Source: Escherichia phage vB_EcoS_ESCO40. From it: a DNA stretch of 64,000 nt. The stretch lies in sequence record NC_106514.1, one strand, 5' to 3'. A program made the translations under genes and the position numbers. The notes beneath the pieces were generated by a model. That model ran no database searches and was not told the origin of the DNA. It worked only from the letters and a program-made list of their open reading frames with translations. Shown here piece after piece: positions 9,268 through 18,663 of the stretch (within the stretch, counting starts at the first letter, position 1; every line of letters starts with the position of its first letter).

Positions 9268-9343
9268 AAATAACACTCCTATAGTGTACTTCGCTTCTAA
9301 CAGAGGATCAACAAAGAGATCTTGTTTATCAACTTACAAATAT

Positions 9344-9372
9344 ATTATAACAAGGTTTACAGCAAAAAGCAA
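9344..9372 (-). promoter_or_regulatory. sigma70-type early promoter (TTGCTT-17-TATAAT) for phoH operon
   Basis: minus strand TTGCTT (9367-9372), TATAAT (9344-9349). Confidence 0.55.
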
Positions 9373-9544
9373 GTATAATTTTAAATAAACCTATGATATT
9401 GCTTTTAAGTAAAAAATTTACTTGCTTATAAAGGTAGAAATATGATACTAGATAATCATTTATTTATATGTAAAGATATTATGCTGTATAGCATCGATAA
9501 AAATTGATAAAAATCAAAAGTCAAATAGTATTAGAAAAATGTAG

Positions 9545-9573
9545 TTGACTTATGGGGTGGAATTGTGTATAAT
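9545..9573 (+). promoter_or_regulatory. sigma70-type promoter (TTGACT-17-TATAAT)
   Basis: TTGACT 9545-9550, TATAAT 9568-9573, followed by AAGGAG site and the 9595 start. Confidence 0.6.
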
Positions 9574-9594
9574 ATATGAATTAAGGAGAATTTA

Positions 9595-14691: not shown

Positions 14692-15084
14692 ATGGAACAA
14701 GTATATTGGCGTCAGATTGATCCTAGTTTGGTGAAGCGTGCGGAGAAGCTGCTACAACGTTGGTTGGGGGTAAGACAAGCCTCCTTCACTTTTCCAGAGC
14801 AGCAAATAGATGATCCCTGTGTTGGTGTTTTCCTATCAGGCTACGCTAGGGAATGGGAATTGGATTGGAATGAATTGTCTGCTATGGGTTTAATTGTTGC
14901 ACTAAATTTCTCTTTGTTCCATCCACGTGGTTTGGCCATATGTCGTGTGCCTGGTGACGGTTGTTCGCCCCATCTTTTACAGGTGGAAGATGATATTTGG
15001 GAGTACACTCCAGGTATTCTCAAAGAAGCTAAAGAACAATTAAATCGTGTTGGAATCTATGTTCCGGGACTAAATGATGAATAA
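14692..15084 (+). CDS. hypothetical protein, paralogue B of a tandem pair
   Basis: 130-aa ORF; DPCVGVFLS / WNELSAMGLIVALNFSLFHP / HLLQVEDD / YVPGLN match paralogue A. Confidence 0.55.
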   Translation: MEQVYWRQIDPSLVKRAEKLLQRWLGVRQASFTFPEQQIDDPCVGVFLSGYAREWELDWNELSAMGLIVALNFSLFHPRGLAICRVPGDGCSPHLLQVEDDIWEYTPGILKEAKEQLNRVGIYVPGLNDE

Positions 15085-15268
15085 AGAATATTGGGTATGT
15101 TATGGTAAAATTAAAAAGTGGAATAAGGGTCAACTTTCCGCTAAACAAGTAAAATTTATGGCGAGATATTTGACTGATCCCACTTTCGATATTAAAAAGT
15201 TAAGTAGCTCAAACCGCGCTATTATACTTAAATTTGCTAATACTATTCGTGGTCTTTTTTATGATTAA
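15074..15268 (+). CDS. hypothetical small protein
   Basis: 64-aa ORF overlapping previous stop, followed by terminator. Confidence 0.4.
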   Translation: MMNKEYWVCYGKIKKWNKGQLSAKQVKFMARYLTDPTFDIKKLSSSNRAIILKFANTIRGLFYD

Positions 15269-15275
15269 TCCGTAT

Positions 15276-15302
15276 AACCGAGTCATTTTGGCTCGGTTTT
15301 CT
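15276..15302 (+). terminator. rho-independent terminator
   Basis: AACCGAG / CTCGGTT stem followed by TTTTCTCT. Confidence 0.6.
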
Positions 15303-15344
15303 CTGTACTCAAAGACACTGATAGCACCATCCGGAAAATTTTAC

Positions 15345-15373
15345 TTGCATGATACTCAAAATCTTGATATAAT
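15345..15373 (+). promoter_or_regulatory. sigma70-type promoter (TTGCAT-17-TATAAT) heading a ~500-nt untranslated leader
   Basis: TTGCAT 15345-15350, TATAAT 15368-15373, then ATTTATATTGAATTGAGAGAC and a 10-bp hairpin (15394-15419). Confidence 0.55.
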
Positions 15374-15873
15374 ATTTATATTGAATTGAGAGACATTAGT
15401 AAAAATTGGTTTTACTAATTTTTCTTGTTTACAATCCGCGATACGGAACAGTTAGGCTGCCCCATTAAGGGTTGTTTTAACTGTTACGTGTTAGTTTTTA
15501 AACAAATAGTTAATAGAATACTTAGCGATCTGCGTCCCATAGGAACCCTGGTAAGGCCTCGAAGCAACCTAGTATGAGGTGGTTGTGAAGTGAGATGGGA
15601 GGAGTGAAAAACTACCGAGACGTGATTCTGTAAGTTATATTGCATCTAGTATGAGCTAGTATATGAAGCATTAGGTGAGCAAATCTGGCTTAGCGGCCAT
15701 CCTCAAGGATTTGTGCGGTATAATGAGGCAGCAGCGCAGCGTGAAAGTGGAAGTTGCCACCCCACTTCAGTATTTGCGATTAATTTGTTGAGAAATTGAC
15801 AGTAACAGTTGTTCTATTCTTTCTGAATAGTCCTAAAGAAAACTTATTTCATTTCCAACACAGGAGTATTGTT

Positions 15874-18663
15874 GTGTTTTCAATCCTACAAGGTCATGCA
15901 GGATTTCATCGCGATTTAGCCACAGGCAATTGGCGAGAAGTTAAAGCAGAAGATTATCTTTTTGCTAAAAGATTTTCCTCAAAGCATCCTGAAGGTAAAC
16001 CAGCTTCAATGCCCTTCAAGTTTGATGTAATTGACGAAGTTGATCCTCAAACCCTAGTAGAAATGCTCCCTCTTATGAGACGTTTAACGTCTGACCCTCA
16101 TATCGTTGCGGTACGAGGTCGATGTCTTGCACCTAAAAATAATGTGCGGCGTAAGAAGGGCAACTTTAATGTATCTAATCCAAGTCATATAATCGCAATG
16201 GATGTGGATGGTATTGTAGATACAGGAGGTTGTAACAAGTTTGATCTTGTTGGCGTGGCTCGACATATTATTAGGATGTTAAATAGTATTAGTGAGGATA
16301 TGTTTCCTCTTGATGCAGGGTTTATCGCTCATGCATCGTCTTCGGCTGGACTAAAACCAGGTATCCGAATGCACTTAATACTAGAATCTAATGTTAAAGT
16401 TACACAGGGTCAGATCAAGTTCTTATTTACATCTATCAACGAAAGTAGTAGACAAAAGTATGGCTTTGATATTGCCGACTTAGCTTATTACTCTTCCGTA
16501 CAGCTCCACTATTTCGCAGATCCTTTATTTATTGATGGTATAGTCGATCCGTTTAAAGCGGAGGGTGCTTCACGTCTGGTATTTGTTAAAGGCTCAAAAG
16601 TAAATTTACCTAATAATCTAGTTGACTATGAAACAACTAGAGGAGAGTTTAAAGAGGAATTCTACTCTTTACTCGATCAAATTAAAGGTAAAAAAGCTGC
16701 CTCTGATAAAGTAGAGGAAACTATCAGTGAGCTAGAAGAGGCTGATGATGGGGTATACTTACGTATTATTCCAAAGCTATATCACCGAGCGTTAGAGGAT
16801 GGGGTAGATTTTGGTTGGCTAGAAAAAGAAATCCGCCCAGCTTTATCAGAATATATTGCAACTAAAGATAATAGCCGTAATATTCAGGATTATTTCAATA
16901 ACGGACGGAAACAGGCATTAAAAGCCTTTGTGAATAACTCTAAGCGTGAGATCCCTGAAGTATTAAAAGGTATCCCCCTTAAAAAGCTAGAAACTAATTC
17001 ACTAGAGACTGACAACTTCTTGAAATTAAATACTGTACCACCAGAAGGCTATATGACTTTTGTAAAAGCAAGTCTAGGCACAGGTAAAACCACGGCGGTT
17101 GTGCGTTGGTTAGATTCAGGGGTTATTAAAGGTAATTTCTTAGCAATTACCAATACTAGAGCACTGGTATCTTCAAATGCTAAGAAATTTAGTGCAGGAC
17201 AATATGATAAGTCTGTAGATATGCTTAATTTTAAGCGTGGTGCTATTGACCGTATGTCCACAACTATTCACTCTTTGCATAAATTCAAGAGTTTTATTGG
17301 TCAAATTGACGCAATCTTTATCGATGAATGTGATGCAGTAATGAATGACCTATTATTCGCTCCGGTTGTTAAGCAACGTCGCGAGTGTATTCAGGTTCTT
17401 CGTGATATTCTTGCAACTGCAAAAATAATTATATTATCTGATGGGGATATTAGTGCAGAAACAATTGAAGCATATGGTTCTTTGATTGAGTTCGATAAAC
17501 CAGTTGCATTTTACAATCACCACCGTAAAATGCTGTCAAAAGCTCATGCTTATGAGTTCCCTGATGAATCCAGTATTTGGGTTGCACTTCAGACTTCTCT
17601 AGAGATGGGTGAGAAATCTATTCTAGTATCTGATTGTGGCCCGGATGAGCTGAATGAGAAAGGTATGGCACTGCGTCGTAATACGGGTGCGTTAGTTAAG
17701 GAAATCCATTCAAACTCTACCTCAGATGTGGATATTCGACGTATTCTGGATTACACAACTAATGAACTAATTGATCAACAAATTGATTGCTTATTATGTA
17801 GTCCATCCGTAACGAGTGGTGTTGACTTTAACTATTTTGATAACGTATTTGTTATTACTAGAACTAGTAATCAAGCGCCAAACATGCGTTTTCAAGCAAT
17901 CAGGCGCGACCGTGGTGCTCAGAATATCTATTATTTTATTGATAAATCCACTAGTGGGTTCTCTGCTGGTTCTGAACAATATAATATTGATGAAGGTTGG
18001 CTGGAGTTAGCACAGCAGTTATATGCGCGTCGCAGGGAGCTAGAATCTAGGAACTATACTAGTACTTTACGTTATTACTTGCTTGATCAAGGTGCAACTA
18101 TTGATATTTTCAGCGAAAGCTGGGGAACTATTGAAGGTGCTGGTAAAGAGTACACAGAAGAGCGAATCAAAGCTATTCTGCATTCAACTCCAGATTATTG
18201 TGCTCCACGTCATGCGGATGCGTATGAAGCTAAACTACTTCTTGTTCGCTATTATCATCTTGAGTCTATTAAAGATGTAACAGTTGAGCATGTTGAACAA
18301 TATATCAAAGATAAGCCGAATGATCGAGCTGCATTCTTCCATAAGATGCACGAGATGTTCTGGGAAGATATTAAGAAGTGTTCAAATGTGACCATTAAAC
18401 CATTCATAGAAGCTCTGAAAGGTAAGAAGAAGGACTTCTTCCTTAAAACAGGTCAGAGTGCTAACCCAAAATATGCTAGAATGTATCTTGGTATGATGGG
18501 TATTGGTAAAGATATGAACACGGAGAATATCGTAGACTGGTACAGAACCTATTGTAAAATCGAGTGTATGCCAATTCCTTATAAGTTCATGACTGACGAG
18601 GAAAAACATATGCACGATGAAGCAATGTCAGAGCTAGGTGCTAGAAATGACAGTGAAGAATAA
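15874..18663 (+). CDS. large replication protein: N-terminal domain plus P-loop NTPase / DExD-type helicase domain (candidate origin-binding helicase)
   Basis: Walker A ASLGTGKTTAVV, Walker B AIFIDECDAV; GTG at 15874 with AGGAG 7 nt upstream chosen over ORF-track TTG at 15796; start uncertain. Confidence 0.6.
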   Translation: MFSILQGHAGFHRDLATGNWREVKAEDYLFAKRFSSKHPEGKPASMPFKFDVIDEVDPQTLVEMLPLMRRLTSDPHIVAVRGRCLAPKNNVRRKKGNFNVSNPSHIIAMDVDGIVDTGGCNKFDLVGVARHIIRMLNSISEDMFPLDAGFIAHASSSAGLKPGIRMHLILESNVKVTQGQIKFLFTSINESSRQKYGFDIADLAYYSSVQLHYFADPLFIDGIVDPFKAEGASRLVFVKGSKVNLPNNLVDYETTRGEFKEEFYSLLDQIKGKKAASDKVEETISELEEADDGVYLRIIPKLYHRALEDGVDFGWLEKEIRPALSEYIATKDNSRNIQDYFNNGRKQALKAFVNNSKREIPEVLKGIPLKKLETNSLETDNFLKLNTVPPEGYMTFVKASLGTGKTTAVVRWLDSGVIKGNFLAITNTRALVSSNAKKFSAGQYDKSVDMLNFKRGAIDRMSTTIHSLHKFKSFIGQIDAIFIDECDAVMNDLLFAPVVKQRRECIQVLRDILATAKIIILSDGDISAETIEAYGSLIEFDKPVAFYNHHRKMLSKAHAYEFPDESSIWVALQTSLEMGEKSILVSDCGPDELNEKGMALRRNTGALVKEIHSNSTSDVDIRRILDYTTNELIDQQIDCLLCSPSVTSGVDFNYFDNVFVITRTSNQAPNMRFQAIRRDRGAQNIYYFIDKSTSGFSAGSEQYNIDEGWLELAQQLYARRRELESRNYTSTLRYYLLDQGATIDIFSESWGTIEGAGKEYTEERIKAILHSTPDYCAPRHADAYEAKLLLVRYYHLESIKDVTVEHVEQYIKDKPNDRAAFFHKMHEMFWEDIKKCSNVTIKPFIEALKGKKKDFFLKTGQSANPKYARMYLGMMGIGKDMNTENIVDWYRTYCKIECMPIPYKFMTDEEKHMHDEAMSELGARNDSEE

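Follow-up and report, generated by a model that had tools for sequence, protein, structure and literature searches.

A conserved, elaborately folded RNA is very probably encoded upstream of the obp/D2 helicase gene of T5-like phages

Genes and signals at the helicase locus

The DNA analysed here, in the following called the window, is a stretch of 64,000 nucleotides (64 kb) from Escherichia phage vB_EcoS_ESCO40 (NC_106514.1). Its largest ORF-free gap (70-aa cut-off) reaches from 15085 to 15795 and is the region upstream of the helicase gene. Salmonella phages S130/S131 and Escherichia phage IrisVonRoten (Tequintavirus, Demerecviridae) share 99.7% identity with the region 15200-15900, and matches to this region are found in 536 phage records. 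The interval is framed by the following features.

15276..15304, + strand: intrinsic terminator of the upstream transcription unit (terminator scan, T5 annotation, relatives)
15345..15373, + strand: T5-type early sigma-70 promoter (read from the sequence, conservation, T5 annotation)
15831..15876, + strand: A/U-rich spacer without structure, with the Shine-Dalgarno (SD) sequence AGGAG at 15862-66 and the start codon GTG at 15874-76 (consensus folds, alignment)
15874..18663, + strand: obp/D2 helicase, 'replication origin binding protein', SF2, 929 aa (Pfam, annotation of relatives)

The helicase carries the Pfam domain Herpes_ori_bp at residues 394-533 and belongs to the bipolar SF2 helicases, the enzyme having been named D2 by Wong et al. 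2013 (PMC3632103). The original prediction described a protein of 930 aa starting with GTG or TTG. The GTG at 15874 is supported as the start, since it aligns with the ATG of Klebsiella and Pectobacterium relatives and the protein similarity starts at the same codon; the length is corrected to 929 aa. In several lineages the helicase starts with a weak GTG or TTG codon, which is consistent with a tightly dosed expression.

The terminator consists of a 10-bp stem with 5 GC pairs (15276-15298) followed by a T-run. It had been proposed at 15276-15302, and both the scan and its conservation in relatives agree with this; the homologous terminator is annotated in the T5 record AY587007. It is the 5' boundary of the element and lies outside the RNA itself.

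The promoter is composed of the -35 hexamer TTGCAT (15345-50), a 17-bp spacer, the extended -10 dinucleotide TG (15365-66) and the -10 hexamer TATAAT (15368-73). It was missed by a simple scan because its -35 hexamer matches in only 3/6 positions. Sequence, conservation (as far as Klebsiella and Providencia T5-like phages) and annotation of the T5 counterpart as 'putative early promoter T5P32' (AY587007) all agree with the promoter originally placed at 15345-15373. In AY587007, T5P32 is followed by 472 nt without any annotation. The pattern TATAAT-N-TGAGAG is common to five promoters in the 64-kb window, this one included, while 0.31 are expected by chance. The sequence GAGAG, which is conserved just 3' of the promoter, is at the same time the 5' strand of the first hairpin (P1, see below). 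By analogy with T5 PN25 the predicted transcription start site is presumably at about 15380.

As previously noted, no ORF of at least 60 codons is listed within 15269-15873; the longest ones comprise 53 aa (- strand), 51 aa and 50 aa. A protein-coding gene conserved in relatives, which had been named as the counter-evidence to a non-coding region, was looked for in 12 lineages, and no conserved ORF was found among them. In the versions of Enterobacterales phages the longest ORFs have 25-73 aa and in the longer Vibrio regions up to 102 aa, on strands and at positions that vary. The small CDSs which some GenBank records contain at this locus are not common to the relatives. The elements named in the original prediction were all recovered, with coordinates that agree exactly or differ by one base. 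Two further observations of it were correct in themselves. The direct repeat CTAGTATGAG exists at 15569 and 15646 (not 15647), and is of no significance, its first copy not being conserved and the repeat being no better than 14 families of two-copy repeats which occur at chance level within the surrounding 5 kb. The tiny ORFs MRWL (15574-88) and MGGVKNYRDVIL (15596-15634) exist as well; they lie inside helices of the RNA and are not conserved. Both the repeat and the tiny ORFs are incidental.

Helices, compensatory changes and strand polarity

The comparison comprised 32 loci from IMG/VR, 10 metagenome loci, T5, and the lineages reached via the helicase protein. The metagenome loci were obtained by a search with helicase peptides and are mostly near-identical. 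Consensus folds were calculated with RNAalifold on MAFFT alignments made from sequence alone. Alignment A3 contains 8 sequences (the window type together with L053, L034 and L035), A5 the Klebsiella phages and phage Eos, and A6 T5 and Epseptimavirus.

With a probability of roughly 0.9 we regard the interval as the template of a conserved, elaborately folded + strand RNA of ~430-495 nt, the structure of which is well supported. The stretch 15388-15830 contains 17-18 helices, which together account for about 120 conserved base pairs. The two hairpins P1 and P2 are followed by the long-range helix P3 of ~40 bp, which encloses a core of ~240 nt (P4-P11), by the hairpin P12 and by the open SD region. 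The predicted elements are listed below.

15388-15404/15410-15426, + strand: P1, 5'-terminal hairpin of 16-17 bp (inverted repeat; helix 1 in A3)
15431..15475, + strand: P2, segmented hairpin with the highly conserved GAUACGGAACAGUUAGGCUGCCCCAU (A6, A5, A3)
15478..15521, + strand: P3 5' arm, AT-rich, one strand of the ~40-bp long-range duplex (pairs with 15770-15811)
15525..15766, + strand: core domain enclosed by P3, P4-P11 (RNAalifold on MAFFT alignment A3 and pair counts)
15525-35/15734-42, + strand: P4 (A3)
15536-40/15595-99, + strand: P5 (A3)
15547-56, + strand: P5a (A3)
15559-61/15591-93, + strand: P5b (A3)
15564-69/15581-86, + strand: P5c (A3)
15601-16, + strand: P6 (A3)
15628-43/15715-31, + strand: P7 (A3)
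15646-59, + strand: P8 (A3)
15679-86/15707-14, + strand: P9 (A3)
15687..15698, + strand: hairpin GGCU-UAGC-GGCC at the tip of P9 (alignments A2 and A4)
15746-50/15762-66, + strand: P11 (A3)
15770..15811, + strand: P3 3' arm (same evidence as for the 5' arm)
15814..15830, + strand: P12, small hairpin CUAUUC/GAAUAG directly 3' of P3 (helix 18 in A3)

The perfect 10-bp hairpin formerly reported at 15394-15419 corresponds to the inner arms of P1, ATTAGTAAAA and TTTTACTAAT (15395-15404/15410-15419), and is part of a longer stem which extends to 15388-15426. P1 is also present in the T5 clade, and in the Klebsiella/Eos lineage it is formed by another sequence. P2 is built from the pairings ACAAUCC/GGGUUGU, GAU/AUU, GG/CC and CAGU/GCUG. 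It is completely predicted in A6, its base and middle covary in Klebsiella/Eos, and its tip is invariant in A3.

P3 comprises 39 pairs in this phage and 31-39 pairs when sequences of the A-type, L034 and L046 lineages are folded singly; equivalents with unrelated sequences occur in 7 lineages. It is continuous in all clade alignments (A3, A5, A6). An interruption of P3 by hairpins in Klebsiella phages turned out to be an artefact of single-sequence MFE folding, as the Klebsiella/Eos alignment yields a continuous P3. A switch between P2 and P3 (15443-54 with 15478-89) was considered and rejected: the alternative pairing is absent in L034, and a substitution in L013 is compensated in P3 and not in the alternative helix.

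The core is arranged as P4, the P5 domain, P6, the three-way domain P7-P8-P9, and P11, and its helices were recovered independently for the T5 type and the Klebsiella type. The sequence CUUAGCGG is invariant in 12/12 lineages compared and can be taken as the signature of the RNA family, while the helix enclosing it is found in 11 of the 12 with differing sequences. The core hairpin GCUUAGCGG is near-invariant, and GAGAnGUG and GUUGCCACC belong like CUUAGCGG to the invariant loop and junction sequences. At the position of P12 the Klebsiella, L034, L035 and L046 lineages have a hairpin of other sequence. For the segment 15831..15876 no conserved pairs are predicted in the consensus folds A3 and A5. 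Two tertiary contacts, a kissing interaction between the loops of P5c (GGUGG) and P11 (CCACC) and a pseudoknot between the tip of P2 (GGCUGC) and GCGGCC, are compatible with some lineages, fail in others, and have no compensatory support. L034 contains an anti-SD-like loop, CCUCCUUAA, as a candidate partner of the helicase SD; this loop is conserved neither in the T5 type nor in the Klebsiella type.

The alignment with related phages for compensatory base changes, which had been suggested as a check, gave a clear answer. In A3 92.8% of the cells of 121 pairs are paired, and 58 of the 121 pairs show changes on both sides, compared to 19.3 +/- 3.2 compensated pairs in shuffled alignments (0/500 reach 58) and 8-18 in slid registers, over which the tested structures have an advantage as they were derived from the same alignments. 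The agreement of three separately aligned clades, and of types which cannot be aligned with each other, is free of this bias. In A5 35 of 150 pairs are compensatory. A6 contains 153 pairs, 6 of them compensatory, with 3 unpaired cells and 4 further broken cells at alignment gaps; apart from three, the substitutions located in its helices leave the pairing intact. For P9 together with the hairpin GGCU-UAGC-GGCC (A2), 9/12 pairs are compensatory, which is matched by none of 500 shuffles.

When Tequintavirus and Epseptimavirus are aligned by plain MAFFT, their sequences hardly differ in 15385-15485 and 15800-15873. The sequence in between (15485-15790) is unalignable between the window type and the T5 type, save islands such as GGCTTAGCGGCC; folded separately, the two types result in the same architecture. 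The sequences of the helices thus differ completely between lineages and the pairing is kept.

The fold is more stable than those of shuffled sequences (z = -2.1; 0/100 shuffles equally stable). Two observations indicate which strand is selected. The consensus fold has -83.9 kcal/mol on the + strand versus -61.3 on the - strand, and the mean single-sequence MFE is -136 versus -112. In the P3 stems of 7 lineages 211 positions are Watson-Crick pairs, and the mismatches number 48 of the G.U type and 4 of the A.C type, the transition types being scored equally. It follows from the G.U:A.C ratio of 48:4 and the better fold of the + strand that the single-stranded + strand is under selection. This is the strand which is read from the promoter and which is co-oriented with the helicase gene. 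This asymmetry excludes a double-stranded DNA inverted repeat or transposon-like element as well as a - strand RNA, and the ~15% G.U pairs together with the promoter context argue for RNA rather than for a folded + strand single-stranded DNA.

A region without function, be it the remains of a gene or a small mobile element whose terminal inverted repeats (TIRs) would be the P3 arms, is on these grounds hardly to be entertained. Inverted repeats of 40 nt do flank ~250 bp, and the centre differs sharply between otherwise similar phages, as such an element would suggest. However, compensatory changes keep the pairing in every helix and not only in the supposed TIRs, a G.U:A.C ratio of 48:4 is unexpected for repeats of double-stranded DNA, and the element is present in one copy per genome at a fixed locus without conserved ORF remnants. 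Covariation and strand asymmetry already contradict this reading. The structured leader or small RNA which the original prediction had offered among other options is in contrast strongly supported by the ~120 pairs, the compensatory changes and the + polarity, and is much larger than first described.

Distribution and comparison with known RNA families

A non-coding stretch of 430-820 nt upstream of the helicase was found in every Enterobacterales T5-like lineage sampled. Taken more widely, 430-1300 nt of non-coding DNA directly precede obp in Tequintavirus, Epseptimavirus and the T5-like phages of Klebsiella, Erwinia, Pectobacterium, Providencia, Vibrio and Aeromonas, and the upstream neighbours differ among these phages. 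In the Vibrio and Aeromonas members the stretch measures 600-1300 nt and folds into domains which are closed by long-range stems.

We also built a covariance model of the P7-P9 region (R1). In the 64-kb window R1 detects exactly one copy (15618-15741, 133 bits), and sequences outside the seed are matched in L053 (115 bits), Erwinia phage KEY (92 bits), oselot (83 bits) and Eos (52 bits). No match of R1 was obtained in the Vibrio, Aeromonas and more distant loci, and L030 reaches only 10 bits. The RNA is a single-copy element in each genome, always at the same locus. A search of genome contigs and viral contigs with the pattern GGCTGC-N(215-245)-CTTAGCGG proved too unspecific, with chance matches among the matches listed.

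The link of the RNA to the helicase gene is strong but not universal. The D2-related phages L058 and L059 are devoid of a long leader. Upstream of two more distant relatives of the helicase (46-51% identity) lies just a short divergent promoter region rich in AT, and upstream of two others (33-35%) again a long structured region. The L036/L056 lineage contains a 12/12 promoter for the RNA and, 37 nt ahead of the helicase start, a second sigma-70 promoter with a perfect match. In the phages Vibrio D233 and Aeromonas TS3 terminator-like hairpins are located between the upstream RNA region and the helicase. These hairpins favour a separate RNA gene over a simple leader, and the second promoter of L036/L056 likewise counts against a role in cis alone.

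The covariance search which had been proposed was run with Rfam 15 (4227 models). At gathering thresholds no family matches in the whole 64-kb window nor in 9 related loci, and at E <= 10 only noise-level matches appear in the region and in the T5 and Klebsiella-phage leaders. Versions from Vibrio and Aeromonas phages gave no real match either. The single match with E < 1 is MicF-like (33.7 bits versus a gathering score of 79) and lies outside the RNA. In the literature searched, neither a description of the RNA nor a transcript map of the region was found. We consider it a real RNA family of a classical phage group that had not been catalogued before, either a large structured RNA or a structured leader of an mRNA.

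Bacterial RNase P RNA was tried as a candidate and rejected. The resemblance of GGAACAGUUAGGCUGCCCCAU to CR-I and of AUAGAAUCGGCUUAGCGG in T5 to CR-V is superficial, and no covariance-model match was obtained even at E <= 10 in the region or in its T5 and Klebsiella versions. The CR-V-like GGCUUAGCGGCC, which could have been taken for a strand of the RNase P helix P4, folds locally into a hairpin of 4 bp with the loop UAGC. Across lineages the outer pairs of this hairpin change in a covarying manner from G-C to A-U, C-G and U.G.

With GOLLD, ROOL, HEARO, OLE and raiA the RNA shares a length of several hundred nt, many covarying helices and invariant loops, and GOLLD and ROOL are also carried by phages. 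None of the Rfam models of these five families matches it. GOLLD and ROOL are usually located near tRNA genes. The RNA described here, in contrast, always precedes the obp helicase gene and is predicted to be co-transcribed with it.

Possible functions of the RNA

A scan of 15305-15873 revealed no terminator-like site between promoter and helicase. As neither a terminator nor a second promoter separates the RNA from the helicase in this phage and its close relatives, both are predicted to form one transcription unit there. The reading we prefer, to which we would give nearly an even chance, is a cis-acting module for the post-transcriptional control and processing of the helicase and the replication genes behind it. 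We infer for this module transcription from the promoter, cleavage by RNase III and a regulatory role. In detail, the helicase mRNA would start at the T5-type early promoter with a 5' leader of ~495 nt, in which host RNase III would cut the P3 duplex. The cleavage would free the core as a discrete RNA and shorten the leader of the helicase mRNA to the part from the P3 3' arm through P12. Processing might in this way set mRNA stability and translation level of a gene with weak GTG/TTG starts, and the conserved core and P2 may offer a binding surface for a tuning protein or ligand.

E. coli RNase III needs roughly 20 bp. With 31-39 pairs P3 exceeds this length and could therefore be cut; it provides the at least ~20 bp of near-continuous double-stranded RNA that are typical of a substrate, and as modelled is a probable RNase III site. 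Processed leaders and stems such as the lambda N leader, the T7 R sites, the pnp/rnc leaders and the rRNA precursors likewise have a long stem formed from distant sequences, which stands before a gene and closes a structured domain, and the host possesses RNase III. The known phage sites are, however, single hairpins of ~20-25 bp without a conserved core of 240 nt. It also counts against control in cis that none of the consensus folds pairs the SD region and that no expression platform is visible. Furthermore, ~17 helices are far beyond what known translational operators or RNase III sites need, so that the RNA may have another function besides or instead of this one, perhaps in trans.

Second in our ranking, after the cis-acting leader, is an independent non-coding RNA acting in trans. 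It is a strong rival, with the P3-closed core of ~290-330 nt as the product that would be released by processing. Such an RNA might be part of a ribonucleoprotein or a decoy, acting for example together with the helicase or other replication proteins or against a host function, and its place in the leader would then serve only to express it. A fold with over 120 pairs and the invariant CUUAGCGG, GAGAnGUG and GUUGCCACC are typical of large functional non-coding RNAs and not of operators. In rRNA precursors processing stems bring the 5' and 3' ends together, and the long closing stem of the RNA, which joins both ends, resembles them. The separate promoters for RNA and helicase in L036/L056 and the terminator-like hairpins behind the structured region in Vibrio D233 and Aeromonas TS3 point in the same direction. 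Against it stand the single transcription unit in this phage and all close relatives, and the failure of R1 to match in Vibrio and Aeromonas, which weakens the support from there. A more specific version appears rather doubtful to us: the core would represent a new large RNA class which is excised from the leader and acts in trans with obp/D2 at replication initiation. It could do so as loader scaffold, primer, catalytic or ligand-sensing RNA, and would have positional counterparts of 400-900 nt in all of the Demerecviridae, those of Vibrio and Aeromonas among them.

A replication origin beside its initiator had also been suggested for this interval. According to this unlikely reading a structured pre-primer transcript would form an R-loop and allow loading of obp/D2, as known from ColE1 RNA II, T4 and T7. 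The RNA lies directly upstream of a gene annotated as origin-binding helicase, and the biochemistry of D2 suggested an initiator role (PMC3632103). The T5 locus is found at about 49% of the genome, and old electron microscopy, as cited in 10.1101/866236, located T5 origins close to the middle of the DNA molecule. With the ColE1 and T4/T7 origin transcripts the locus shares a strong promoter and a long structured G-rich transcript beside replication functions (GC skew +0.25 to +0.41 over 15500-15800), and the P3 arms are AT-rich. It differs from them in that an antisense partner, an origin signature, a skew inflection and a mapped RNA-DNA transition are missing. Iterons, of which an origin of this type would have at least three beside an AT-rich unwinding element, and tandem repeats were not found, only two-copy repeats at chance level. 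The cumulative skew rises steadily through 14-17.5 kb without an inflection at the site, and skew and gene orientation switch ~6 kb upstream at 9.3-9.6 kb (skew sign change at ~8-10 kb). Moreover, the DNA sequence is not conserved where the RNA pairing is, the P3 arms being kept as pairing partners, and D2-related phages (L058, L059) manage without the long leader. Recombitron strand bias suggests that T5 forks start mainly from one end (PMC10055335), and a dominance of such one-ended forks speaks against an origin at this site as well. The sequence thus does not support the origin option, as iterons and a skew inflection are absent and the conservation resides in the RNA pairing.

The last alternative, a riboswitch-like or antitermination leader, we regard as improbable. 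In one form the core would be an aptamer for a metabolite, an ion, a tRNA or a protein and would switch either the elongation of transcription or translation; in the other P1 and P2 would act like the HK022 put RNA and make RNA polymerase resistant to terminators across the long replication operon. Like riboswitches, T-boxes and protein-binding leaders the RNA is located in a 5' UTR and contains multi-helix junctions with conserved unpaired nucleotides. P1 and P2 directly follow the transcription start site, P2 is highly conserved in sequence, and the distant relatives with terminator-like hairpins between RNA region and helicase would also suit such a leader. In contrast to those leaders the RNA has no expression platform and no known ligand, and its size is two to three times theirs, well above that of known aptamers. 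Among the Rfam models for riboswitches and leaders none matches. In this phage neither a terminator nor an SD-sequestering helix was found, and no alternative pairing is conserved. The attenuator of the original prediction likewise finds no support here, as there is no terminator-like hairpin from the promoter to the gene and the one candidate for an alternative pairing lacks conservation.

Large RNAs that fold in a complex way are seldom found and have repeatedly proved to be ribozymes, riboswitches or scaffolds of ribonucleoproteins. An RNA of more than 400 nt and ~120 pairs was left unannotated in these phages, or its sequence was wrongly assigned to tiny proteins or to additional N-terminal residues of the helicase. 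In many database records the finding thus puts right the start of a gene or a spurious CDS. T5 has long served as a model phage, and its relatives find wide use in therapy and biocontrol. For the control of T5 replication, the RNA before the helicase is a genetically tractable handle on timing and dosing of the replication machinery, and also a handle on the question what large phage RNAs do.

Helicase start and annotation of the leader

In RefSeq record S131 and in other records the CDS of the helicase (the obp/D2 'replication origin binding protein') is begun at TTG 15796, which adds 26 codons (window 15796-15873) that are read through the P3 3' arm and P12, two helical elements of the conserved structured leader RNA. 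The helicase start is likely GTG 15874, with AGGAG at 15862-66. Several GenBank records also annotate two to four tiny 'hypothetical proteins' within the leader. For Vibrio phage D233 the record seems to place the helicase CDS start ~135 nt too far downstream, because the similarity to the helicase protein already begins at ~1501 of that locus (L051).

Variable elements within the leader

Between helices P1 and P2 an optional insertion of 89-97 nt was found, e.g. in the related loci L032, L011 and L023. Its site falls between window 15418 and 15426, and the insertion is flanked by a duplication of TTTTTCTT. It occurs in 51 phage records, with one copy in each genome, in backgrounds of both the window type and the T5 type of leader, and it does not fold better than shuffled sequence. 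In Salmonella phage oselot (L038, 1636-1666) three short tandem copies of ATTTTGCTA, which the record annotates as repeat_region, lengthen P1 on its 3' strand.

On the 3' side of the UAGC hairpin, which forms the tip of P9, the loop reads AUCCUCAA in the window (15699-15706), CCUCCUUAA in L034 (~2830-2841) and UCUCCUUAG at the equivalent position in L035. The L034 and L035 sequences resemble the anti-Shine-Dalgarno 3' end of 16S rRNA; leaders of the T5 and Klebsiella types do not conserve this motif.

Upstream flank and GC skew

A weak match to MicF in Rfam (33.7 bits against a gathering threshold of 79, E 0.005) lies on the + strand at window 15217-15304. It spans the upstream terminator, whose hairpin contributes part of the score, and the 3' end of a 64-aa ORF (15074-15268) found in a subset of relatives only.

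The GC skew changes sign at ~8-10 kb, close to the second-largest ORF-free gap (9277-9594). In the T5-like phage phiLLS the published GC-skew 'origin' is ~3.5 kb upstream of the obp gene, not at the leader.

Promoters and terminator-like hairpins

Five window promoters have in common TATAAT-N(4-16)-TGAGAG, the classic T5 early-promoter downstream motif, compared to 0.31 expected by chance.

Promoters with the shared motif (window, + strand)
12145
15368
18912
21155
31402

Terminator-like hairpins with T-runs, 85-130 nt upstream of the helicase start and followed by a common TTTTTTGCAC motif
L051 1369-1424, Vibrio phage D233
L052 1179-1227, Aeromonas phage TS3

Perfect (12/12) sigma-70 promoters in L056, also in L036
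705-733
1435-1464

One of these two perfect promoters precedes a structured region of ~700 nt, the other is located 37 nt upstream of the helicase start.
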